A stretch of 64,000 nt of DNA from Escherichia coli (GTDB lineage Bacteria; Pseudomonadota; Gammaproteobacteria; Enterobacterales; Enterobacteriaceae), in the NCBI RefSeq assembly GCF_030384885.1, contig NZ_CP128613.1, one strand, 5' to 3'. The position numbers were made by a program, and so were the translations under genes. Of this stretch, positions 3,280-52,730 are shown piece by piece; the first letter of the stretch is position 1; every line of letters begins with the position of its first letter. Below the pieces are notes generated by a model. That model made no database searches. It saw only the letters and a list, made by a program, of their open reading frames with translations, and had not been told where the DNA came from.

Positions 3280-4236
3280 ATGCGACAAAATTGCGCACAA
3301 TCAAATTGCCGCATTATTCCTAAGAAATTACGCGATATGAAACGTGAAGAGATTTGCCGCTTGCTGGCGGGTAAAGTTAATAAACTGAAAAATAAAGAAA
3401 ATAGTTTATCAGAGCTATTGCCCGATGTGCGTTTGTTGTATGGCGAGACGCCTTTCGCACGTACGCCGGTGATGTACGAGCCTGGCATCATAATTCTCTT
3501 TTCTGGGCATAAAATCGGTTATATCAATGAACGCGTGTTTCGTTATGATGCAAATGAATATCTGCTGCTGACGGTGCCGTTGCCGTTTGAGTGCGAAACT
3601 TATGCCACGTCAGAGGTACCGCTGGCAGGGTTGCGTCTCAATGTCGATGTTTTGCAGTTACAAGAGCTGTTGATGGACATTGGCGAAGATGAGCATTTTC
3701 GGCCGTCGATGGCAGCCAGCGGGATTAACTCTGCCACGTTATCAGAAGAGATTTTATGTGCGGCGGAGCGGTTACTCGATGTGATGGAGCGACCGCTGGA
3801 TGCGCGTATTCTCGGCAAACAGATCATCCGCGAAATTCTGTACTACGTGCTGACCGGACCTTGCGGTGGCGCGTTACTGGCGCTGGTCAGCCGTCAGACT
3901 CACTTCAGCCTGATTAGTCGTGTGCTGAAACGAATTGAGAATAAATACACCGAAAACCTGAGCGTCGAGCAACTGGCGGCAGAAGCCAACATGAGCGTAT
4001 CGGCGTTCCACCATAATTTTAAGTCTGTCACTAGCACCTCGCCGTTGCAGTATTTGAAGAATTACCGTCTGCATAAGGCGCGGATGATGATTATCCACGA
4101 CGGCATGAAGGCCAGTGCAGCAGCGATGCGCGTCGGCTACGAAAGCGCGTCGCAATTTAGCCGTGAGTTTAAACGTTACTTTGGTGTGACACCGGGGGAG
4201 GATGCGGCAAGAATGCGGGCGATGCAGGGGAGTTAA
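3280..4236 (+). CDS. yqhC: AraC-family transcriptional activator of yqhD-dkgA
   Basis: Track ORF 3109..4236; start chosen at in-frame MRQNCAQ (318 aa, matching remembered YqhC length); C-terminal AraC HTH. Confidence 0.85.
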
Positions 4237-18675: not shown

Positions 18676-18766
18676 TAGCTTTCGTAGGCCTGATAAGACG
18701 CGACAGCGTCGCATCAGGCATTGTGCACGATTGCCGGATGCGGCGTGAACGCCTTATCCGGCCTGG
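18676..18766. repeat. REP/BIME element
   Basis: gtaggcctgataagacgcgacagcgtcgcatcaggc ... gccggatgcggcgtgaacgccttatccggcctg. Confidence 0.75.
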
Positions 18767-23515: not shown

Positions 23516-23563
23516 CCTTCCTGAAAATGCCCGGTCCTGGCGATCGGGCATTTCCATTTTTGA

Positions 23564-24256
23564 CTAGTGATAACCACACGCGGTCATAAAATCCGTAATC
23601 GCTTTTTCTGCATCAACCAGCACCTTTTCCAGTGGCTGATTGGCGTCGATATCAACCAGTTGTGCACCACCAAAGGTTAACTGTGGCGTTATGGCAATCT
23701 TTCTCGCCAGCGATTCCCGTTTATGGTCGGGTTTACGCGCGCAGGCAACTTCAAGGTCAACATTGAGTTTGATAACCAGATCAGGCTTATGGCTCGCCAT
23801 CCAGTGAAATGCTTTACGTTCCTGGCTTGCCAGCCATGAGACAAACCGGCCGCCTTCAACGTTAGGTGGGAACACCGTACCATCGTAAGCGCCAGGAATT
23901 TGGTCCTGAGGATAACGATCGGTTAAGACAATCAGCCCGCGACGACGACAGGCGAGCATATGACGAAAGCGTAACAGTCGGCGGGCGACGAAAGCGGTGA
24001 TCACCAGGGCCGGAACCGGACCCGGCAATTTTTTTGCCGTTTTCACTTCATTTTTTTCAATAGTCTTGTGCAGAGACTTTCCCATCAACGGTAATTTTGT
24101 CACTGCACGACCGACATTTCCGGCCTGTTTTCCTAAATGAACTCTTTCGGCAGCACCATATTTTTCGACAACGGTAATAAGATGTTCACACACCGTTGAC
24201 TTGCCTGAACCATCGCTACCAATAACGGCAATTAATGGAGGTGTTATTGACTGCAT
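23564..24256 (-). CDS. yghT: P-loop NTPase (Walker [11 protein letters not shown]), YghR/S/T paralog family
   Basis: Track ORF 230 aa; shares Walker A, DRYPQ and ARKPDH motifs with the two downstream paralogs. Confidence 0.88.
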
Positions 24257-25977: not shown

Positions 25978-27327
25978 TTGGCGGGGTTTAACATCAAACA
26001 TTGGTTTGCAGATGGCGCGTTTCGCACCATTATTCGCAATAGCGCCTGGTTAGGCTCCAGTAATGTCGTGAGCGCTTTGCTGGGTCTGTTGGCGCTCTCG
26101 TGTGCCGGTAAAGGGATGACGCCCGCCATGTTTGGCGTACTGGTGATTGTGCAATCGTACGCCAAGTCGATCAGCGATTTTATTAAGTTTCAGACATGGC
26201 AGCTGGTGGTTCAGTACGGAACGCCAGCCTTGACCAATAATAATCCGCAGCAATTTCGCAATGTCGTCTCATTTTCCTTCTCGTTGGATATCGTCAGCGG
26301 CGCGGTGGCGATTGTCGGCGGCATTGCCTTACTCCCTTTTCTTTCCCATTCATTAGGTCTGGATGACCAAAGCTTTTGGCTGGCAGCGCTGTATTGCACG
26401 CTCATTCCTTCAATGGCTTCCTCCACACCGACCGGCATTCTGCGTGCGGTAGATCGCTTCGATTTGATTGCTGTACAGCAGGCGACGAAACCTTTTCTGC
26501 GCGCAGCGGGGAGCGTCGTAGCCTGGTATTTTGATTTTGGTTTTGCGGGTTTTGTTATTGCCTGGTACGCATCGAATCTGGTTGGCGGCACCATGTACTG
26601 GTGGTTTGCCGCGCGCGAATTACGCCGCAGAAATATCCATAACGCCTTCAAATTGAATCTGTTTGAGTCTGCCCGACACATTAAAGGCGCGTGGAGTTTT
26701 GTCTGGTCAACCAACATTGCCCACTCCATCTGGTCGGCACGTAACTCGTGCAGCACAGTGTTGGTGGGGATCGTGTTAGGACCCGCTGCCGCCGGGTTAT
26801 TTAAAATCGCCATGACATTCTTCGATGCCGCCGGAACGCCAGCGGGTTTACTGGGCAAAAGTTTTTACCCAGAGGTAATGCGTTTAGATCCGCGTACCAC
26901 CAGACCGTGGTTGTTAGGCGTGAAGTCCGGTTTACTGGCGGGCGGAATCGGTATTCTGGTGGCGCTCGCGGTGTTGATCGTCGGCAAGCCGCTCATTTCG
27001 CTGGTGTTTGGCGTTAAGTATCTCGAAGCGTATGACCTGATTCAGGTAATGCTTGGCGCAATTGTGATTTCGATGCTGGGCTTCCCACAGGAGTCATTGC
27101 TATTGATGGCGGGAAAACAGCGCGCTTTTCTCGTGGCGCAAACCATCGCCTCAATCGGCTACATCGTATTGCTGTTCATGTTCTGTCATCTGTTTGGCGT
27201 GCTGGGGGCTGCATTTGCTTACTTCGGTGGGCAATGTCTGGATGTGGTGCTCTCGTTAATTCCAACCTTAAAGGCATTTTTTCAGCGCCATTCCTTGCTT
27301 TATAACGCAGCCGGAGAGAAATCCTGA
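25978..27327 (+). CDS. yghQ: polytopic inner membrane protein, MOP/Wzx-type flippase-like; start codon uncertain (first ATG in frame at 26116)
   Basis: Track ORF 449 aa (non-ATG start at 25978); many hydrophobic helices; stop overlaps next gene start (TGATG). Confidence 0.8.
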   Translation: MAGFNIKHWFADGAFRTIIRNSAWLGSSNVVSALLGLLALSCAGKGMTPAMFGVLVIVQSYAKSISDFIKFQTWQLVVQYGTPALTNNNPQQFRNVVSFSFSLDIVSGAVAIVGGIALLPFLSHSLGLDDQSFWLAALYCTLIPSMASSTPTGILRAVDRFDLIAVQQATKPFLRAAGSVVAWYFDFGFAGFVIAWYASNLVGGTMYWWFAARELRRRNIHNAFKLNLFESARHIKGAWSFVWSTNIAHSIWSARNSCSTVLVGIVLGPAAAGLFKIAMTFFDAAGTPAGLLGKSFYPEVMRLDPRTTRPWLLGVKSGLLAGGIGILVALAVLIVGKPLISLVFGVKYLEAYDLIQVMLGAIVISMLGFPQESLLLMAGKQRAFLVAQTIASIGYIVLLFMFCHLFGVLGAAFAYFGGQCLDVVLSLIPTLKAFFQRHSLLYNAAGEKS

Positions 27328-28151
27328 TGATGAGAAAATATTTCCCGCTTGAGGCGAGCGAGCGTCTATTTATTGCAGTTGAAGAAGATGATGTCGTTGA
27401 TGCGCAGGTCAGTTTACCGCCGACTATCGCAACAGGTTGTACCACCGAAATCATTCATGATAATTACGCGTTATGCCTGCAATTCTGGCTGAATGGCGTT
27501 GATCGTCAGGAATTACTGCGTTTAATCCACAAACAAGCCAAAGGCGAGGGGCTTACGGCTGACGAGCGTAAACAGTTTAAATATATGCGGGCGCGTTATA
27601 AGCATCTGCGTTTCGCTCAGCGACTGTATCTGAAAAAACACAAGGCAGGATTTTTATTCGGCAAAACGACGGTATGTCTGGGCCATTTTCAGGATGGTTT
27701 CCGTAACGGTAAAAAAAATATTGTGTCGTATTACGGCAACCTGTTACGGATTTATTTAAGCTCTCCGGTCTGGTCGTTGGTGAACTATTCATTACGCCAT
27801 AGCCAGTTAGAAAGCGTAAGCGGTTTTATTGCCTATCGGCAAAAGCAAATGCATACCCTGAAAGAGATAATTGCCAAACCGCGACTAACCGGCAGGGAAT
27901 TTCATGATGTGCGAAAAATCATCAGCCAGCAGGTTTCTTATTACGACACCCTAAGATCGCTTGATCCTGAAAAAAAAGAAGCGTTACAGATTTCCCGCTT
28001 CCTCGCCGCCATTAATGGCCTGATGGGGGATAAACACGACGACATGGTGGCGGATGATATGGAAAACCGCCAGTCGTATGATGCACCGATGGCGCTGGAT
28101 AGCGATATTCGTCAGCGCTTAGAACTGCTGATTTCGCGTTTTCCGCTATAA
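27327..28151 (+). CDS. hypothetical soluble protein, no recognisable motif
   Basis: Track ORF 274 aa MMRKYFPLEASERLFIAVEEDD...; start overlaps yghQ stop; codon usage protein-like. Confidence 0.6.
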   Translation: MMRKYFPLEASERLFIAVEEDDVVDAQVSLPPTIATGCTTEIIHDNYALCLQFWLNGVDRQELLRLIHKQAKGEGLTADERKQFKYMRARYKHLRFAQRLYLKKHKAGFLFGKTTVCLGHFQDGFRNGKKNIVSYYGNLLRIYLSSPVWSLVNYSLRHSQLESVSGFIAYRQKQMHTLKEIIAKPRLTGREFHDVRKIISQQVSYYDTLRSLDPEKKEALQISRFLAAINGLMGDKHDDMVADDMENRQSYDAPMALDSDIRQRLELLISRFPL

Positions 28152-28159
28152 CCGGAGCA

Positions 28160-28723
28160 ATGATGTCATCTCGTTTGATTATTGCGCTGATTATCATGCT
28201 CTTAGCCCCGGGTGTGCAGGCACACAATTTCGTCACGGGTAAAACGGTTACCCCTGTTTATATCCAGGAAGGCGGCGAGCTGCTTCTGAATAGCGACGAC
28301 GAAATTCACTACCAAAAGTGGAACAGCACACAGCTGGCGGGAAAAGTCCGCATTATTCAGTATATCGCCGGGCGTAAGTCGGCGAAGAAAAAGAACTCAC
28401 TGTTAATTAAAGCGGTTGAAGCGGCAAACTTTCCGCAGGATCGTTTTCAGCCCACCACCATTGTGAACACCGATGATGCCATCTTTGGTACTGGCTATTT
28501 TGTCGTTGGCAAAATCGAAAAAAATAAACGCCGCTATCCGTGGGCGCAATTCGTTATTGACGGCAATGGACAGGGACGCGTTGCCTGGCGGTTGCCGGAG
28601 CAGAGTTCAACCATTCTGGTGCTGAATAAAGCCGGGCAAATTCAGTGGGCAAAGGACGGCAGCCTGACGCCGGAAGAGGTAGATCATGTCATTGCGCTGG
28701 CGCAGAAGCTGATCAATGAATAA
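28160..28723 (+). CDS. YtfJ-family periplasmic protein (paralog of core ytfJ), signal peptide MMSSRLIIALIIMLLAPGVQA
   Basis: Track ORF 187 aa; collinear similarity to remembered E. coli YtfJ (shared stretches VVQYIAGR.., TTIVNTDDAI, YPW.QFV.D, WAKDG.LTPEEV). Confidence 0.75.
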   Translation: MMSSRLIIALIIMLLAPGVQAHNFVTGKTVTPVYIQEGGELLLNSDDEIHYQKWNSTQLAGKVRIIQYIAGRKSAKKKNSLLIKAVEAANFPQDRFQPTTIVNTDDAIFGTGYFVVGKIEKNKRRYPWAQFVIDGNGQGRVAWRLPEQSSTILVLNKAGQIQWAKDGSLTPEEVDHVIALAQKLINE

Positions 28724-28752
28724 AAATTCAAAGGATTGAGGGCGTTAGTGAG

Positions 28753-29823
28753 ATGAAGCTGGTTGAACACTACATCATGCGTGGTACTCGCCGTCTGGTG
28801 CTGATTATCGTCGGTTTTCTGATCTTTATTTTCGCCAGCTACTCCGCACAGCGTTATCTGACCGAAGCGGCAAATGGGACATTAGCTCTTGATGTTGTGC
28901 TGGATATTGTTTTCTACAAGGTGCTGATTGCACTGGAGATGTTGTTACCTGTTGGACTGTATGTGTCAGTTGGCGTGACGCTAGGGCAGATGTATACCGA
29001 CTCGGAAATTACCGCTATTTCTGCGGCGGGGGGGAGTCCGGGACGCTTGTACAAAGCCGTTCTTTATCTGGCGATACCGCTAAGTATTTTTGTCACCCTT
29101 CTGTCGATGTATGGTCGTCCGTGGGCTTATGCGCAGATTTATCAACTGGAGCAACAGTCGCAGTCGGAGCTGGATGTTCGCCAGTTGCGGGCAAAGAAAT
29201 TTAACACTAACGATAACGGACGAATGATCCTTTCGCAGACGGTTGATCAGGATAATAATCGCCTGACTGACGTGCTGATTTATACTTCTACTGCCAATCG
29301 AACCCGTATTTTCCGCGCCCGTTCGGTTGATGTAGTTGACCCATCACCCGAGAAACCGACCGTTATGTTGCATAACGGGACCGCCTATCTTCTCGATCAT
29401 CAGGGACGTGACGACAACGAACAGATCTACCGTAATCTGCAATTGCATCTGAATCCGCTGGATCAAAGCCCTAACGTCAAACGCAAAGCAAAATCGGTCA
29501 CGGAGCTGGCGCGCTCCGCCTTTCCTGCCGATCATGCCGAACTGCAATGGCGACAAAGCCGTGGCCTGACAGCATTGTTGATGGCGCTGCTGGCCATTTC
29601 ATTAAGTCGGGTAAAACCGCGGCAAGGGCGATTTTCAACGTTATTGCCACTGACGTTGCTGTTTGTTGCCATTTTTTATGGCGGCGACGTCTGCCGTACG
29701 CTGGTGGCTAACGGCGCGATTCCCCTCATTCCTGGTTTGTGGTTAGTACCCGGACTCATGCTAATGGGCCTGCTGATGCTGGTCGCACGCGACTTCTCTT
29801 TGCTGCAGAAATTTTCCCGATGA
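28753..29823 (+). CDS. LptF-like permease (YjgP/YjgQ family), paralog of core lptF
   Basis: Track ORF 356 aa; N-terminal TM bundle, conserved YTDSEITAISAAG segment resembling LptF LYTESEITVMHACG, large periplasmic insert, C-terminal TMs. Confidence 0.8.
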   Translation: MKLVEHYIMRGTRRLVLIIVGFLIFIFASYSAQRYLTEAANGTLALDVVLDIVFYKVLIALEMLLPVGLYVSVGVTLGQMYTDSEITAISAAGGSPGRLYKAVLYLAIPLSIFVTLLSMYGRPWAYAQIYQLEQQSQSELDVRQLRAKKFNTNDNGRMILSQTVDQDNNRLTDVLIYTSTANRTRIFRARSVDVVDPSPEKPTVMLHNGTAYLLDHQGRDDNEQIYRNLQLHLNPLDQSPNVKRKAKSVTELARSAFPADHAELQWRQSRGLTALLMALLAISLSRVKPRQGRFSTLLPLTLLFVAIFYGGDVCRTLVANGAIPLIPGLWLVPGLMLMGLLMLVARDFSLLQKFSR

Positions 29824-30899
29824 ATGTTTTCAGTCGCTATTTAATCCGTCATCTCTTTCTCGGTTTTGCCGCCGCCGCAGGGCTATTGCTGCCGCTTTTT
29901 ACTACCTTCAACCTGATTAACGAACTGGATGATGTCAGCCCGGGTGGTTATCGCTGGACTCAGGCGGTGCTGGTGGTGCTGATGACCTTACCGCGCACAC
30001 TGGTCGAACTTTCGCCGTTTATCGCCTTATTGGGGGGGATTGTCGGCTTGGGGCAGTTATCGAAAAACAGTGAGCTTACCGCCATTCGCAGCACGGGGTT
30101 TTCTATCTTCCGTATTGCACTGGTGGCGCTGGTTGCCGGGATATTGTGGACTGTTTCATTAGGCGCGATAGATGAGTGGGTGGCGTCGCCATTGCAGCAA
30201 CAGGCGCTGCAAATCAAATCGACTGCCACTGCGTTGGGGGAGGACGATGACATTACCGGCAATATGCTGTGGGCCAGGCGTGGTAATGAATTTGTGACGG
30301 TGAAATCGCTGAACGAGCAGGGCCAGCCGGTGGGCGTGGAGATATTTCATTACCGCGACGATCTCTCGCTCGAATCCTACATTTATGCACGCAGTGCCAC
30401 CATTGAAGACGACAAAACGTGGATCCTGCATGGTGTGAATCATAAAAAATGGCTGAATGGCAAAGAAACGCTGGAAACATCTGATAATCTTGCCTGGCAA
30501 TCGGCCTTCACCAGTATGAATCTTGAAGAGTTATCGATGCCGGGAAATACTTTTTCTGTCCGTCAACTTAATCATTACATCCATTATTTGCAGGAAACCG
30601 GGCAACCCAGCAGCGAATACCGCCTTGCACTGTGGGAAAAACTGGGACAACCCATCTTGACCCTGGCGATGATTTTGCTGGCTGTGCCGTTTACCTTTAG
30701 TGCCCCGCGTTCGCCTGGGATGGGTAGCCGTCTCGCTGTAGGCGTCATCGTGGGCTTACTCACCTGGATCAGCTATCAAATCATGGTCAATCTGGGATTG
30801 CTATTTGCGTTGAGCGCACCTGTTACCGCGCTCGGTTTACCGATAGCGTTTATGCTGGTGGCGTTGAGCCTGGTGTATTGGTATGACAGTCAACATTAA
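29820..30899 (+). CDS. LptG-like permease (YjgP/YjgQ family), paralog of core lptG
   Basis: Track ORF 29739..30899; start trimmed to MNVFSRYLIRHLFLGF (359 aa), ATGA overlap with upstream permease; segment NSELTAIRSTGFS resembles LptG. Confidence 0.8.
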   Translation: MNVFSRYLIRHLFLGFAAAAGLLLPLFTTFNLINELDDVSPGGYRWTQAVLVVLMTLPRTLVELSPFIALLGGIVGLGQLSKNSELTAIRSTGFSIFRIALVALVAGILWTVSLGAIDEWVASPLQQQALQIKSTATALGEDDDITGNMLWARRGNEFVTVKSLNEQGQPVGVEIFHYRDDLSLESYIYARSATIEDDKTWILHGVNHKKWLNGKETLETSDNLAWQSAFTSMNLEELSMPGNTFSVRQLNHYIHYLQETGQPSSEYRLALWEKLGQPILTLAMILLAVPFTFSAPRSPGMGSRLAVGVIVGLLTWISYQIMVNLGLLFALSAPVTALGLPIAFMLVALSLVYWYDSQH

Positions 30900-30933
30900 A
30901 CCCGCCGTGGCGCAGCACCACAGCGGGCTCACA

Positions 30934-32106
30934 TTACTGCTTCAGAGTAGCAAATGCCTGAATGATGGCATCGATTTGCTCACGAGTGTGGGCAGCGTTT
31001 ACGCTACAGCGCAGCAGCGTGATGCCTGCAGGCGCGGCAGGTGGCAGGATAAGATTCACATAAACGCCCAGCGAAATAAGCTCGCGCCAGATGCGTAAAC
31101 CTTCCTCTTTCGAACCGATTATCACTGGCACTACCGGGCTAATATGTGAACTTAACTCGTAACCCAGTTTTTGCAGACCGTCATACAGATGGTTGGCGTT
31201 ATCCATCAGCTTTTGCCGCAACTCTGGTTGTGAGGCAATGGTTCTTAACGACGAGCGCACGGTCGCAATGCAGGACGGAGAAGGAGAGGCGGTAAAAATA
31301 TACGGGCGGCTGCCGTAGCGCAGCACTTCCATCGCTTCCGAACCGACAGCAAAACCGCCAATCGAGGCCAGACTTTTACTGAAAGTACCAACGATAATAT
31401 CCACATCATCTTCAACGCCAACGGCTTCAGCCAGTCCGCGCCCCGTTGCGCCTAACACGCCAAACGAATGCGCTTCATCGACAATCAAATAACCACCGAG
31501 ACGACGTTTGATATCAACAATTTCCGCCAGCGGCGCAATGTCACCGAGCATACTGTAGATGCCTTCAACGATGATAATCGCCTCTTTTGCCCGTTCACCG
31601 AGGCGAACCATGCGCCGTTCCAGATCTTTAGCATCGTTATGGCGGAAACGAATAATTTCCGCTCCACCGAGAGAACAGGCGTCATAAATACTGGCGTGGC
31701 TGTCGGCATCCAGTAACACTACGGCGTTATGGTCGGCAAGTGCGCTGATGACACCTAAATTAGCGGTATAACCGGTTGAAAAAACGATAGCGGTAGGGCG
31801 ATTGAAAAACTCGGCAATTTCTTTCTCTAACGCCAGATGTGGCGCATAGCTGCCATTAGCCATACGAGAACCGGTAGTGCCGGTGCCTTGGGCCGCTAAC
31901 GCTGCCTGACCTTCGGCGATGGCATCATGATTGAAGGTTAAACCGAGATAATTATTGGTCCCGGCCAGGATCACGTTTTTATCGCCGATCCGGCCTTCGG
32001 TGGCGGAATACACTTCATCAATACAGGTACCAAACGGCGTTAACCCGTTGTCACTAAATTGCAGTCGCTCGCCAGCAAGGCGCGCATATTTATCGTATAG
32101 CCCCAT
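30934..32106 (-). CDS. PLP-dependent alpha-oxoamine synthase, serine palmitoyltransferase-like (third AOS paralog besides bioF and kbl)
   Basis: Track ORF 390 aa; PLP-lysine motif IVGTFSKSLASIGG, DEAHSFG motif, glycine-rich GTGTTGSR segment; TAATG overlap with upstream ACP. Confidence 0.85.
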   Translation of the reverse strand: MGLYDKYARLAGERLQFSDNGLTPFGTCIDEVYSATEGRIGDKNVILAGTNNYLGLTFNHDAIAEGQAALAAQGTGTTGSRMANGSYAPHLALEKEIAEFFNRPTAIVFSTGYTANLGVISALADHNAVVLLDADSHASIYDACSLGGAEIIRFRHNDAKDLERRMVRLGERAKEAIIIVEGIYSMLGDIAPLAEIVDIKRRLGGYLIVDEAHSFGVLGATGRGLAEAVGVEDDVDIIVGTFSKSLASIGGFAVGSEAMEVLRYGSRPYIFTASPSPSCIATVRSSLRTIASQPELRQKLMDNANHLYDGLQKLGYELSSHISPVVPVIIGSKEEGLRIWRELISLGVYVNLILPPAAPAGITLLRCSVNAAHTREQIDAIIQAFATLKQ

Positions 32107-32354
32107 TATTTATTCTCCAGCCATGGAAGTAGAGTTTCCATTAATTGCGCAGGGGTTTTGACATCCAGCAGAATATTAATAGGAATGGAAATATCGAATC
32201 TGTCTTCCAGCATCATTAAGAGATCCATCACTTTGATCGACTCCAGGCCAAGATCGTTGACGAGATCGCTGTCGGGCTTAATTTCCACACCGTTTTCGAC
32301 CAAATCCTGTAAACAGGAAAGGATGTAATCCATTACTATTTCACGATTTACCAT
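32106..32354 (-). CDS. acyl carrier protein (dedicated), candidate phosphopantetheine site in DLGLESIKVMDL
   Basis: Track ORF 82 aa; acidic four-helix ACP-like sequence; position between reductase and AOS. Confidence 0.7.
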   Translation of the reverse strand: MVNREIVMDYILSCLQDLVENGVEIKPDSDLVNDLGLESIKVMDLLMMLEDRFDISIPINILLDVKTPAQLMETLLPWLENK

Positions 32355-32385
32355 AGAAACGTTAACACACCTTTAAACAAGACAA

Positions 32386-33300
32386 TCAAAATAGCCCGTT
32401 GCGTAATGCGTGTTCCAGGCTAATCCCGGGAAACCAATTAATATCTTCAGAAATACGGTTATTACTTGCTGACCAGTCGGTGTGGGTTAATTCACGGATT
32501 TTCGAGCGGGTCAGCATAGGTTCTTTACCTGCCAGGCGACTCAACGCGGTACTGATATCCGCAAGGCAGGTGAGTACCGACAGAGGAATACCAACCATTC
32601 GAACGGAACCGCAACGGGCGTCGGCGGCAAGTTGCTGTACGCGTTGCCAGTCATAGCCGCCGGCGACGCCATCGCATAATTCATAGGTTTGCGTCTGTAC
32701 AGTTTCGGCGCTTAACCACTGCCCCACGGCTTGCGCGAAATCGGTGACGTGCAGGAAAGAGAGCTGTGTATCTGGCGCACCAAGTCGTGGCAGCAGGCCG
32801 CGCAGCATCCAGTCAAACAGCGGTTTTAACTCTTTATCGCCGGGACCATACACGGCTGTCGGGCGAAAAATGCCCAGCGTAATTTCGTCAGCCATTGCGG
32901 TCAGTCGTTGTTCGGCGACGTGTTTGGAATTTGCGTACCAGGAGAGTTCGGGATGGCGCGCCGCCAGCGAAGAGATAAACAGAAAACGTTGGCAAAAGCC
33001 GCTCTCTTTTGCCGCTTGCATCAGGCGCAGGCTGCCGTCAACGTTACAGCGGGTAAAAATCTCTTCTTTGTGTCCGCGCACTTGCCCGGCGCAATGGACC
33101 ACCGCGCTGGCTCCGGCAACCAGTTCGCTAAGCGAATGTGTATCTTCCAGCGAACCGCGCACCCAGATGAGATTATCATTGACGTGAGCGCGGGCAGTAC
33201 GCGTCAATGCGCGAACGTGAAAGCCGCGGGCGAGCAGGTTATCGATAATATATTTACCGATAAACCCGGTAGCGCCCGTCACCGCGACAGTTTGATTCAT
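32386..33300 (-). CDS. NAD(P)-dependent reductase of the epimerase/dehydratase SDR type (candidate 3-keto-sphinganine/ceramide reductase)
   Basis: Track ORF 304 aa; N-terminal VAVTGATGFIGKY Rossmann motif, YANSK (YxxxK); ATGA overlap with upstream FAAL. Confidence 0.8.
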   Translation of the reverse strand: MNQTVAVTGATGFIGKYIIDNLLARGFHVRALTRTARAHVNDNLIWVRGSLEDTHSLSELVAGASAVVHCAGQVRGHKEEIFTRCNVDGSLRLMQAAKESGFCQRFLFISSLAARHPELSWYANSKHVAEQRLTAMADEITLGIFRPTAVYGPGDKELKPLFDWMLRGLLPRLGAPDTQLSFLHVTDFAQAVGQWLSAETVQTQTYELCDGVAGGYDWQRVQQLAADARCGSVRMVGIPLSVLTCLADISTALSRLAGKEPMLTRSKIRELTHTDWSASNNRISEDINWFPGISLEHALRNGLF

Positions 33301-35015
33301 GCCATTGATTCCTGCACATGAAGGCTTGCAGCATAACGTTTTTTCGCTTCCGCACGGGCAGGCTTGCCGGAGGACGTTCGGGGAATACTGTGGGGCGGCA
33401 ACAGATCGATAGCCGCTGTTACGCCAAATTCGCTTTGGATCCGTGCTGCCAGTGCGTGGATAAGCTGCCCACGACGTTCTTCGTCGCTGATCCTACACTG
33501 GATCTGCAAAATGATTTTTTCCTGGGCGGTAACAAAAGCAATCGCATCGCCAGAATGAATTTCCGGTTCCTGTTCCGCAATATATTCAATATCCTGCGGC
33601 CAGATATTACGGCCACGAATAATAATCAGATCTTTAATGCGCCCGGTGACATACAGATAACCGTCCAGCAGATAACCGAGGTCGCCGGTATCTAACCAGC
33701 CCGTCGCGGCAATCTCGTCTTGCGAAACCTGGTCGCCAAAGTAACCGCTCATCAGGCTGGGGCCGGAGATGCAAATATGGCCTACCACACGTTCCGCGAC
33801 TGGCATACCTGCTTCATTGCGGATTTCAATGCCATGTTCCGGCAACGCTTTACCGCAGTTGACGAAAGTCGATACGGCGCGTGTTTCAGCACCCGGCGTG
33901 ACGGCTTTGCCCTGATATTCAAGAATGTCGCGATCCACTTCGTTAACCACAACCCCGGAGGCTTCATCAGAGAAGCTGACAGCCAGCGCATTTTCTGCCA
34001 GTCCGTAGCACGGCATGAAAGTTTTATCGTCAAAGTTAACCTGACGGAAACATTCAGCGAATTGATGGAGTTGTTCTGCGGAGATCGGCTCAGCACCAAT
34101 ACCAGCAACGCGCCAGCAGGAAAGATCCAGTTCAGCGAGATCTTTTTCATTCACGCGGCGCTGGCACAATTCATAGCCAAACGGCGGCGCAACGGAAACG
34201 GTGCCGCGATTTTTACTGATCAATTTAAGCCATTGCAGAGGACGCATGGCAAAATCCTGAGTGCGCAAATAATCTACTGAGAGCTGCGTGGCGACGGGGG
34301 TCAGGAGAAAGCCGACCAGTCCCATATCATGGTAGAAAGGCAGCCAGGAGACGCAGCGGTCGCCAGGGCGTAATTTAATGCCATCGTGGCTTATAGCACG
34401 TAGATTAGCCATCACTTCGCGATGGGTGATAATGACGCCACGGGGAAAACGGGTGCTGCCGGAGGTGTACTGGAGGTAGGCGATATCGTTCGGAACTGGA
34501 CGCTGGAGTACAACATCGGCTTCCGGTAATGCCTTAAACCAGGCGTGGCTTAAAACATGTAATTCGGGGTTGTTATGCGTAGCAGCATTGACCAGTGGCA
34601 ACCACTCATCACCAGTGATAATGGCTGCGGGCTGGCAACTTGCCAGTAGACCCTGCAGTTTGGCGCTCCAGGAATCCCGCTGACCGACGCCCATTGGAAT
34701 TGCCAACGGGACGGCGACTAAGCCGGCATACTGGCAGGCAAAAAAAGCCTCTACAAACCCGCTACTCGTTTCGGCAATCAGCGCCACGCGATCGCCTTTT
34801 TTCAGATTCAGTGATAACAACCGCTTCGCACCAGCTTCGGCACGCGCTTTTAACGTCTGATATTCCAGTTGATCTTCAAGTTGGCAACGTCTGTCATAAA
34901 AATTCATTCCGGCGCTACTCAGAGCGGCGTAGTCCAAAGCATCAACCAGCGTTGGAAAATCGGCATAGCGCATAGGTAGGGAATGCGTAAAGATGTTATT
35001 AGACATATACACCAC
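33297..35015 (-). CDS. fatty acyl-AMP ligase / acyl-ACP synthetase (adenylate-forming); start at GTG 35015 or ATG ~35006
   Basis: Track ORF 572 aa; AMP-binding signature YTSGSTRFPRGV, second motif TGDLGY; first gene of the minus-strand operon. Confidence 0.85.
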   Translation of the reverse strand: MVYMSNNIFTHSLPMRYADFPTLVDALDYAALSSAGMNFYDRRCQLEDQLEYQTLKARAEAGAKRLLSLNLKKGDRVALIAETSSGFVEAFFACQYAGLVAVPLAIPMGVGQRDSWSAKLQGLLASCQPAAIITGDEWLPLVNAATHNNPELHVLSHAWFKALPEADVVLQRPVPNDIAYLQYTSGSTRFPRGVIITHREVMANLRAISHDGIKLRPGDRCVSWLPFYHDMGLVGFLLTPVATQLSVDYLRTQDFAMRPLQWLKLISKNRGTVSVAPPFGYELCQRRVNEKDLAELDLSCWRVAGIGAEPISAEQLHQFAECFRQVNFDDKTFMPCYGLAENALAVSFSDEASGVVVNEVDRDILEYQGKAVTPGAETRAVSTFVNCGKALPEHGIEIRNEAGMPVAERVVGHICISGPSLMSGYFGDQVSQDEIAATGWLDTGDLGYLLDGYLYVTGRIKDLIIIRGRNIWPQDIEYIAEQEPEIHSGDAIAFVTAQEKIILQIQCRISDEERRGQLIHALAARIQSEFGVTAAIDLLPPHSIPRTSSGKPARAEAKKRYAASLHVQESMA

Positions 35016-35377: not shown

Positions 35378-36520
35378 ATGGAATGCGATCTGCTGATGAT
35401 TAAAATTGAAAAAGTAATTAATAAAAATGACATTAAGGCATTTATCGCTTTTCCGTCATCACTTTATCCCGATGATCCAAACTGGATACCCCCTTTGTTC
35501 ATTGAACGCAGCGAGCATTTGTCGGCGAAGAATCCGGGGACGGACCATATTATCTGGCAGGCGTGGGTAGCAAAAAAAGCGGGGCAGATAGTCGGGCGGA
35601 TTACCGCGCAAATCGATACCTTGCACCGCGAGCGTTACGGTGACGATACCGGTCATTTTGGCATGATTGACGCCATTGATGATCCGCAGGTTTTTGCCGC
35701 TTTGTTTGGCGCAGCGGAAGCATGGTTGAAGTTACAAGGTGCCAGTATGATCAGCGGGCCTTTCAGCCTGAATATCAATCAGGAAAGCGGATTACTGATT
35801 GAAGGTTTCGACACTCCGCCCTGTGCGATGATGCCGCACGGTAAACCGTGGTATGCCGCGCATATTGAACAATTGGGTTATCACAAAGGTATTGATTTAC
35901 TGGCGTGGTGGATGCAACGAACCGATCTCACTTTCTCTCCGGCGCTAAAAAAACTGATGGATCAGGTACGCAAAAAGGTGACCATTCGTTGCATCAATCG
36001 TCAGCGGTTTGCTGAAGAGATGCAGATCCTGCGTGAGATTTTCAACTCTGGCTGGCAGCACAACTGGGGATTTGTGCCGTTTACCGAACATGAATTCGCT
36101 ACCATGGGCGATCAACTAAAGTATCTGGTACCGGACGATATGATCTACGTCGCTGAGATTGGTTCTGCACCCTGCGCGTTTATTGTCGGCTTGCCGAACA
36201 TCAACGAGGCGATTGCCGATCTGAACGGATCGCTCTTTCCCTTCGGCTGGGCAAAATTGCTGTGGCGCTTAAAAGTCAGCGGTGTGCGAACTGCGCGAGT
36301 GCCGCTGATGGGCGTGCGTGACGAGTATCAGTTCAGCCGCATCGGCCCGGTGATTGCGCTGTTATTGATTGAAGCCTTACGCGATCCGTTTGCTCGCCGG
36401 AAGATCGATGCGCTGGAAATGTCATGGATCCTCGAAACCAATACAGGCATGAATAACATGCTGGAACGCATTGGAGCGGAGCCGTACAAGCGTTACCGAT
36501 TGTATGAAAAGCAGATTTAA
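35378..36520 (+). CDS. yghO: YghO, full-length; candidate N-acyltransferase (GNAT/FemAB-like fold suspected, not verified)
   Basis: Track ORF 380 aa MECDLLMIKIEKVINKNDIKAF...; position between the lipid operon and glcC. Confidence 0.75.
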   Translation: MECDLLMIKIEKVINKNDIKAFIAFPSSLYPDDPNWIPPLFIERSEHLSAKNPGTDHIIWQAWVAKKAGQIVGRITAQIDTLHRERYGDDTGHFGMIDAIDDPQVFAALFGAAEAWLKLQGASMISGPFSLNINQESGLLIEGFDTPPCAMMPHGKPWYAAHIEQLGYHKGIDLLAWWMQRTDLTFSPALKKLMDQVRKKVTIRCINRQRFAEEMQILREIFNSGWQHNWGFVPFTEHEFATMGDQLKYLVPDDMIYVAEIGSAPCAFIVGLPNINEAIADLNGSLFPFGWAKLLWRLKVSGVRTARVPLMGVRDEYQFSRIGPVIALLLIEALRDPFARRKIDALEMSWILETNTGMNNMLERIGAEPYKRYRLYEKQI

Positions 36521-36658
36521 TACCAGATCCCATTAAGCGCACGGACGGTCATTCGGGAGAGTGTATAGATGAACAGATTTAACATCAGATCCTATTAAGC
36601 GCAGGGGCGGTCCCCTCGCCCCTCAGGGAGAGGGTTAGGGTGAGGGGGAAAACTCGGC

Positions 36659-37429
36659 TCACATTCCCCCCTTGTTCATCTCCAGTGGCACCGCCGAGCG
36701 AATCAAATGGTGGCCTTCCAGTTCGATATCGTGGAGATTCTTTTTCACGGTCCGCACATGATCACGTGCGGCGCGCTGGGCGACGTGCGGCAGTCGCTGC
36801 AACACCGCGTTGTAGATCCGCGCATGTTGGCGATCGATCTGCTTTTTTTGCTGTGGTCGATGGTAGAGATTATTTACGCTGGCAAACACTGAATTAAACA
36901 TCAGATCGGTCAATGATTGCAGCGTAAAAACTAGCACCTGATTGTGGGAAGCCTGACAAATGGCAAGATGGAAAGCATGATCCAGCTGCGCGTGTTCGAT
37001 CAGCGAAATTTCTTTGTTGTTTTCACTGGCGGCGAGCATTTTTTCATAACAGCGGGTTATCAAAACAAAATCCGCCTGGGTTCCCAGCGTAGCTGCCAAC
37101 CTTGCCGATTCGCCTTCCAGCAATGCGCGAACGTCGAGTAGATCGTATAGCGTTCGCGGCTGTGTACTGAACAGATGGATCAGCGGGCTGGTGTCCTGCA
37201 CGCGATTAAGGCGTGCGACACGAGAATCGCGCCCCTGTGCTGTTTCAATAATCCCGCGTCCGCGCAGCACGGTCAGCCCTTCACGCAGTGCGGAACGCGA
37301 GAAGCCGAGCTTTTCACACAGTCGACGCTCCGAAGGAAGCGGCTGACCGACCTTCAGCACGCCGTCGATAATTAACCGTTCGATACTCTCTGCAACCACT
37401 TCGCAAATAGGGCGACGTTCATCTTTCAT
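36659..37429 (-). CDS. glcC: GntR-family activator of the glycolate operon
   Basis: Track ORF 36659..37489; start trimmed to MKDERRPICEVVAESIERLIIDG. Confidence 0.93.
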   Translation of the reverse strand: MKDERRPICEVVAESIERLIIDGVLKVGQPLPSERRLCEKLGFSRSALREGLTVLRGRGIIETAQGRDSRVARLNRVQDTSPLIHLFSTQPRTLYDLLDVRALLEGESARLAATLGTQADFVLITRCYEKMLAASENNKEISLIEHAQLDHAFHLAICQASHNQVLVFTLQSLTDLMFNSVFASVNNLYHRPQQKKQIDRQHARIYNAVLQRLPHVAQRAARDHVRTVKKNLHDIELEGHHLIRSAVPLEMNKGGM

Positions 37430-44067: not shown

Positions 44068-44422
44068 TAGCATCAAAAAAGCCCCGGCAAGTTTTATTGT
44101 CGGGGCTATGATAGTAACTGCGGTAGTATATTTATCCCGGAAATAACCGGGGCGATTATCAGGGTTTAACAATATTAAATACCCGTAGCGCATCACTAGC
44201 GGGACTAAAACAACATTATGGACATCTTTACGATACTCTGCGCCTGTGTGTGCGGAACAGAAACCCTTACCCGATATACTTGTTATGCCAGAGGTAGCAA
44301 TTGCGTTAGCGGCGTGCTGTTGCTGTAAAGTATAACGCCTATATTTTACAGTTCAGTCCTCTTTTGCTTATTACAAACCTTAAATATATCAAGTATATAA
44401 AGATAATAAGAGACTGAACAAT

Positions 44423-51239: not shown

Positions 51240-52539
<1,300 letters not shown>

Positions 52540-52654: not shown

Positions 52655-52730
52655 TGGTGCCCGGACTCGGAATCGAACCAAGGACACGGGGATTTTCAAT
52701 CCCCTGCTCTACCGACTGAGCTATCCGGGC
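52655..52730 (-). tRNA. pheV: tRNA-Phe (GAA anticodon)
   Basis: Reverse complement reads GCCCGGATAGCTCAGTCGGTAGAGCAGGGGATTGAAAATCCCCGTGTCCTTGGTTCGATTCCGAGTCCGGGCACCA, the E. coli tRNA-Phe sequence. Confidence 0.97.

Follow-up and report, generated by a model that had tools for sequence, protein, structure and literature searches.

The window analysed here is a stretch of 64,000 nucleotides of Escherichia coli DNA (contig NZ_CP128613.1), in which a sphingolipid locus occupies positions 25978–35015. The locus consists largely of two convergent transcription units. On the plus strand, a run of genes in the order yghS, hypothetical, Polysacc_synt flippase, hypothetical, YtfJ-family, lptF-like and lptG-like ends with the lptG-like gene, and the last two members of the run are joined by an ATGA overlap. 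On the minus strand, the aasR-epi-acpR-spt operon has spt as its last gene. The genes around the point where the two units meet are the following:

28753–29823, plus strand: lptF-like permease (Pfam LptF_LptG, full length, E 1.9e-55)
29820–30899, plus strand: lptG-like permease of the LptG2 type (Pfam LptF_LptG, E 2.7e-69; named lptG in the near-identical RefSeq record)
30934–32106, minus strand: spt, serine palmitoyltransferase of the alpha-oxoamine synthase family (Pfam Aminotran_1_2; RefSeq product name)
32106–32354, minus strand: acpR, dedicated ACP, upstream in the spt operon
32386–33300, minus strand: epi, epimerase/reductase, upstream in the spt operon
33297–35015, minus strand: aasR, acyl-AMP ligase, upstream in the spt operon
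35378–36520: yghO, 380 aa, divergent from the spt operon

An earlier note on this DNA had described an export operon and a biosynthetic operon ending face to face, with an LptG-like permease and an alpha-oxoamine synthase gene at their ends. The coordinates of the open reading frames bear out this arrangement, and the Pfam matches (LptF_LptG and Aminotran_1_2, the alpha-oxoamine synthase gene being spt) bear out both gene assignments. The description is correct, and it was already known. The genes aasR-epi-acpR-spt form the published dihydroceramide cluster of E. coli, ECD_02850–02854 in BL21(DE3), where the spt gene ECD_02854 makes 3-oxo-sphinganine and yghO has been put forward as the N-acyltransferase gene for the ceramide synthase step (PMC9386255); the spt of the window was likened to ECD_02854 by cluster gene order. 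YghO (380 aa) gave no Pfam-A match at E <= 1e-3. LptF/LptG paralogues encoded in the Caulobacter sphingolipid locus have been implicated in sphingolipid transport, in a preprint that also draws the locus of E. coli UTI89 (10.64898/2026.04.12.717747). A literature search with yghO/yghQ and ECD_0285x returned gene-function papers only, with neither 3'-end data nor a prior mention of the junction.

Bases 29800–32200 of the window are 100% identical to E. coli 2013C-4282 (NZ_CP027579.1). A G run within the lptF-like gene, at 29027–29034, counts seven bases in the window and six in NZ_CP027579.1, so that either the window is not literally NZ_CP027579.1 or that record has a homopolymer error. The lptF of NZ_CP027579.1 is annotated as frameshifted in RefSeq. 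A broken exporter was nevertheless rejected for the window, whose lptF-like reading frame is intact with the G7 run (356 aa, full-length Pfam match, no gap relative to other Escherichia).

Among 5426 complete E. coli genomes, the junction between lptG and spt was found in about 4111–4145 (~76%) and is missing from the remainder. E. coli K-12, the strain behind most Term-seq and SEnd-seq studies, is not known to have the cluster, the explanation being a deletion between yghQ and yghO.

The stop codon of the lptG-like gene (TAA, 30897–30899) and that of spt (TAA, 30936–30934, minus strand) enclose a very short spacer, for which the earlier estimate of about 34 bp is exact. Its elements, and the tail that adjoins it, are:

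30900–30933, both strands: spacer between the two convergent stop codons, 34 bp
30901–30910, plus-strand reading: 5' arm of the inverted repeat, CCCGCCGTGG
30911–30917: loop, CGCAGCA (CGCAACA or CGCAAACA in the common E. coli alleles)
30918–30927: 3' arm, CCACAGCGGG
30891–30900, minus strand: U-rich tail of the spt-sense hairpin, UUUAAUGUUG, T-score about 3.0

The inverted repeat that had been noticed as cccgc...gcggg is therefore present, and it is longer than stated, with ten pairs (30901–30910/30918–30927). In its perfect form the stem reads CCCGCCGTGG-N7/8-CCACGGCGGG. In the window, nine of the ten plus-strand pairs are Watson-Crick and the remaining one, 30906/30922, is C·A; the same position forms a G·U on the minus strand.

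Folding of 40-nt segments gave stable structures on both strands. For the common E. coli allele, the energies were −21.9 kcal/mol on the plus strand (z −4.6) and −29.3 kcal/mol on the minus strand (z −6.0). For the window, they were −15.7 kcal/mol on the plus strand (z −2.75, equalled by 2 of 200 shuffles) and −27.1 kcal/mol on the minus strand (z −5.9, 0 of 200). The 27-nt core stem behaved similarly: −24.2 kcal/mol for the common allele and −22.0 for the window in the spt sense, versus −20.8 and −14.6 kcal/mol in the lptG sense, the last value being low because of the C·A at 30906/30922. A stable GC-rich stem-loop, as in Rho-independent terminators, is present in both senses. An extended helix of 24 pairs could be drawn in the spt sense; it includes many G·U pairs between the stop-codon regions and was regarded as incidental. 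The spt-sense stem, of 10–12 pairs, begins 6 nt past the spt stop codon, and the lptG-sense hairpin only 1 nt past the lptG stop codon. Given the usual footprint of a ribosome, one that terminates at either stop codon could transiently occlude the 5' arm of the adjacent stem, as both stems begin 1–6 nt past such a codon.

The hairpin is not a member of a repeat family. No Rfam match was found at the spacer, neither at gathering level on the whole window nor at E <= 10 on 30600–31250, and a 48-nt query spanning the junction matched a median of one place per E. coli genome even at E <= 10. A REP/BIME assignment was rejected on these two grounds. The spacer resembles REP/BIME elements in being a GC-rich extragenic palindrome between convergent genes that may act as a terminator or stabiliser, but unlike them it is single-copy, has no Rfam match and no match elsewhere in E. 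coli genomes, and its place at the junction is taken by unrelated spacers in other genera. The window does contain a REP-type element, at 18687–18763 between the convergent genes hybG and yghU, with Rfam naRNA4 matches on both strands; this is the only naRNA4 match in the window, and it lies away from the spacer between lptG and spt.

The two sides of the hairpin differ. Downstream of the stem in the spt sense, the tail UUUAAUGUUG has five U in the first 8 nt, directly after the stem. It is the reverse complement of the end of lptG (...CAA CAT TAA) plus one base of the spacer. By E. coli standards this U-tract is weak, being interrupted after three U; short as it is and interrupted, it may terminate even spt-sense transcripts inefficiently. 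In the lptG sense the tail is CUCACAUUAC (CUCACAUUACUG), with a T-score of 0.7; it is not a U-tract, and all Escherichia species are alike in this respect. On the plus strand, a run is seen only on the lptG-proximal side (TTAAA), the spt-proximal side being CTCACATT. The U-rich tail was found in 11 of 13 distinct aligned Escherichia junction sequences, and the two from E. albertii have A UUUAAUGUUU. As the tail consists of the stop codon and the last two codons of lptG, its conservation may reflect coding constraint and not terminator function.

An approximate d'Aubenton-Carafa d-score, which is indicative only (modern energy parameters were used with the formula), was +15 to +25 in the spt sense and −30 to −52 in the lptG sense; for E. 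albertii it was slightly negative in the spt direction (−7). Tail scores were computed with the core stem fixed. Terminator prediction on both strands, which had been proposed as a check, placed a site in the spacer on the minus strand and none on the plus strand. Over 3 kb, the scan returned six terminator-like sites versus 3.2 expected from shuffles, barely above expectation. The suggestion that the repeat is a bidirectional terminator thus holds in part: there is a hairpin and a probable transcript-end signal, with a U-tail in the spt sense (T-score 3.0), whereas the U-tract is absent in the lptG sense (0.7). The spacer fails the symmetric definition of A-tract, hairpin and U-tract, because the U-tail is present only for the minus strand and, in the window, the plus-strand hairpin is weakened by the C·A.

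In the spt sense, the spacer resembles E. coli Rho-independent terminators by its GC-rich stem of 10–12 pairs, its short loop and the immediate U-rich stretch, past the last gene of an operon; it departs from them in that its U-tract is short, interrupted and made of the last coding bases of the gene opposite, and in that the lptG sense has none. It shares with symmetric bidirectional intrinsic terminators the use of one hairpin by two convergent units across a short spacer. A textbook example of that class lies in the same window between pitB and yghT (23517–23564, GAAAATGCCCGGTCCTGGCGATCGGGCATTTCCATTTTT, about −21 kcal/mol on both strands), where runs are found on both sides (GAAAATGCCCG...CGGGCATTTCCATTTTT), unlike the junction between lptG and spt, which has a run on one side only.

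The alleles of the hairpin were counted as exact 48–49-nt matches among the approximately 4111 genomes having the junction. A perfect 10-bp stem with a 7-nt loop was present in 1386 genomes, a perfect stem with an 8-nt loop in 1187, and a perfect stem with a C>T change just outside it in 391. Together these three perfect-stem alleles account for 2964 of ~4111 genomes, at least 72%. A G>A stem allele was found in 653 genomes; adding the variant carried by the window, it amounts to about 16% of E. coli genomes. At most 73 genomes are within one mismatch of the 116-nt junction of the window, which combines the G>A change with an A>G in the loop. The A at 30922 is derived, since E. albertii, E. 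whittamii and the other Escherichia spp., that is every outgroup species, have G. Only the hairpin in the lptG sense is weakened by this change (−20.8 to −14.6 kcal/mol), that in the spt sense going just from −24.2 to −22.0 kcal/mol. We considered whether the strand polarity of single stem mutations could serve as a clue to the selected strand. The bias was inconsistent, the stem alleles of the window (and L002) and of E. albertii favouring the spt sense and those of EC2 and L011 the lptG sense, so the clue was dropped and provides no argument for which strand is selected.

A separate observation concerns E. coli PK8217 (L010, NZ_CP080121.1, 1501–1650), in which an IS5 interrupts spt about 24 bp from its 3' end and the remainder of the operon is missing. 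This strain retains the hairpin as well as the lptG-like gene, the latter being annotated as frameshifted.

Conservation was examined on 80 spt loci from a set of species-representative genomes, plus E. albertii and metagenomic contigs. The spacer measures 34–36 bp in every Escherichia species examined. In comparisons with five other Escherichia lineages, 9 of 100 stem positions (9%) are different, versus 501 of 1847 (27%) fourfold-degenerate sites of the flanking genes; the stem has therefore accumulated changes at one third of the neutral rate (Fisher p 2e-5, the lineages not being independent). The loop and the 6 nt between the spt stop codon and the stem vary freely across Escherichia, and four of these six differ in the three most distant lineages. 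In the alignment of the 13 distinct Escherichia junctions, pairing is kept in 96.2% of stem cells. Both partners have been substituted at two pairs, from G-C to A-U in E. whittamii and from C-G to U-A in L012, and most single changes are transitions that leave one of the two strands with a wobble pair. The covariation is modest, as two events underlie it and 22 of 500 shuffles reach it.

Outside Escherichia, none of the loci in this collection has the Escherichia-type spacer of 34–36 bp with its hairpin. Orthologues of Spt at 84–87% identity are patchily distributed in Pseudocitrobacter, Citrobacter amalonaticus, Hafnia and Shimwellia; the other loci retrieved, many of them from Erwiniaceae, Serratia and Pseudomonas, have 57–82% identity. 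A convergent lptG-like gene directly past spt was observed in Escherichia, Pseudocitrobacter, Citrobacter amalonaticus, C. youngae, Hafnia, Shimwellia and two Erwinia species, and Pluralibacter has an extra gene between the two. Most Enterobacterales loci have a strong hairpin just past spt. In Pseudocitrobacter, the spacer between lptG and spt is 44–45 nt long and contains an unrelated hairpin of 11–13 pairs, GTTCAGCCATGCG...CGCATGGCTGAAC. This type (L016, L020, L023, L093 and L094; Pseudocitrobacter and relatives) has no U-run on either side, and its version in P. vendiensis carries a compensatory T/A swap, which suggests that hairpins without U-runs have been selected at this junction in Pseudocitrobacter and relatives. 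In Shimwellia each strand has a separate canonical terminator of its own, and Pluralibacter and C. youngae have hairpins of the A-tract/stem/T-tract type. A hairpin is not obligatory, since no convincing one was found in the 76-nt spacer of Hafnia paralvei (best −7 kcal/mol) nor in the 18-nt spacer of Erwinia rhapontici. Judging from these alignments, a hairpin at this operon boundary is recurrent and selected, yet not universal.

From the hairpin, its conservation and covariation, its one-sided U-tail and its single-copy status, we infer how transcription might end at the junction. The reading that we favour, and hold to be rather probable, is that the spacer hairpin is the shared 3' boundary of the two convergent operons of the sphingolipid locus and that it is polar in action. 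For the aasR-epi-acpR-spt operon, it is probably an intrinsic terminator. RNA polymerase coming from spt would transcribe a GC-rich stem of 10–12 pairs followed by UUUAAUGUUG, the anatomy of a Rho-independent terminator; since the U-rich tail is immediate, the transcript would be released once the polymerase has moved a few bases into the last lptG codons. For the lptFG-like operon, the same element would be at most a non-canonical pause, roadblock or stabiliser. Polymerases arriving from lptG would produce a somewhat weaker hairpin followed by no U-tract, which could act as a pause or roadblock site, or as an element protecting the 3' end. Release of the lptG-sense RNA might then occur by collision with polymerases coming from spt, or through Rho further downstream, with exonucleases trimming the transcript back to the stem.

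Other readings differ mainly in what they assign to the lptG direction. It is possible, though we find it doubtful, that the spacer is strictly a unidirectional terminator for spt, so that transcription from lptG reads into antisense spt and is ended there by Rho, the hairpin serving as an exonuclease stop that stabilises the mRNA. The missing U-tract in the lptG sense agrees with this, as does a stretch of the untranslated antisense-spt RNA, 130–260 nt downstream, in which C exceeds G (C/G 1.5–2.0) and which may be a Rho loading site. There is also a precedent, REP-type hairpins in E. coli having been described as combined partial Rho-dependent terminators and mRNA stabilisers (10.64898/2026.03.23.713779). 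Against it, the first 130 nt past the hairpin are G-rich (C/G 0.66–0.9), hence poor for Rho. Moreover, this possibility overlaps with the polar boundary that we favour and does not exclude it.

At the other extreme, termination would be truly bidirectional and depend on the hairpin together with collision: the hairpin would pause RNA polymerase arriving from either side, and head-on plus trailing collisions would release both transcripts without U-tracts or Rho, leaving overlapping and precise 3' ends. Terminators of this class are reported to be prevalent between convergent E. coli genes, to be Rho-independent and to bear no resemblance to intrinsic terminators (10.1101/2022.10.23.513370). 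The location suits them, as the spacer is a very short one between convergent genes with a hairpin in both senses, and in common with the ynaJ-uspE model of the same SEnd-seq study (10.1101/2022.10.23.513370) at least one of its two senses is unlike a strong intrinsic terminator. The replacement hairpin of Pseudocitrobacter, conserved with a compensatory change yet having no U-tail on either side, is also in line with collision. We regard this account as unlikely, however. It needs simultaneous and reasonably strong transcription of both operons, and the G>A allele, present in about 16% of genomes, weakens only the lptG sense, suggesting less constraint there; the latter argument is countered by the EC2 and L011 alleles, which weaken the spt sense instead.

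A bolder extension would be that the synthesis and export transcripts, overlapping by ~30 nt at their 3' ends, affect each other, the transcription of one operon setting termination or stability of the other by polymerase collision or by RNase III cleavage of the duplex, and tying sphingolipid synthesis to export capacity. The argument for it is the geometry of the junction, and we judge it improbable. If it were true, the natural alleles (perfect stem, G>A with a weaker export-sense hairpin, C>T with a weaker synthesis-sense one) would be expression variants.

That the palindrome acts as DNA, as the site of a dimeric regulator or as a target for recombination or insertion, is very improbable: its perfect 10-bp arms with a 7–8-bp centre and the IS5 insertion of PK8217 about 30 bp away, with loss of the spt operon, would suit such a role, but the bases covary to keep pairing instead of being held constant, Pseudocitrobacter has an unrelated hairpin at this position, the element sits at gene 3' ends and not at a promoter, and the IS5 junction is outside the palindrome. 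A chance inverted repeat with no function deserves equally little credit, for although short GC-rich repeats are common and the scan was scarcely enriched (six sites per 3 kb for 3.2 expected), the z-scores reach −6, the stem has evolved at one third of the neutral rate and contains compensatory changes, and hairpins recur at orthologous junctions.

Taken as the polar boundary of the two operons, the spacer hairpin is plausibly an ordinary transcript-end signal of a familiar type, within a gene cluster that has already been published. By itself it matters little, and its modest value is practical. The sphingolipid locus of E. coli is under active study, with aasR-epi-acpR-spt and yghO on one side versus a transport module of flippase, ytfJ-like and lptFG-like genes on the other (PMC9386255; 10.64898/2026.04.12.717747), and knowing the ends of both operons helps the design of clean deletions and reporters. 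Deleting spt with its 3' flank would also deprive the lptFG-like transcript of its 3'-end structure, because the two ends share one hairpin and the U-tail lies inside the last codons of lptG. The natural allele series, in which at least 72% of genomes have the perfect stem and variants of two kinds each weaken one strand only, offers a ready test of strand-specific hairpin function.

Some other features of the window were recorded in passing. The 138-bp spacer between yghO and glcC (36510–36670) contains a direct repeat of ~38 bp, AGATTTAAYAYCAGATCCYATTAAGCGCA.GG.CGGTC, in two copies ~62 bp apart, the first of which overlaps the yghO stop codon. Past this repeat lies a G/C-rich palindromic block, GGGGCGGTCCCCTCGCCCCTCAGGGAGAGGGTTAGGGTGAGGGGG, that resembles a dispersed enterobacterial repeat. 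Rfam and ARAGORN matches at 44122–44343, 52299–52421, 52655–52730 and 1914–1977 correspond to the C0719 sRNA, isrC adjoining tRNA-Phe (GAA), and the ES173 sRNA; genomic islands often integrate at tRNA-Phe genes.
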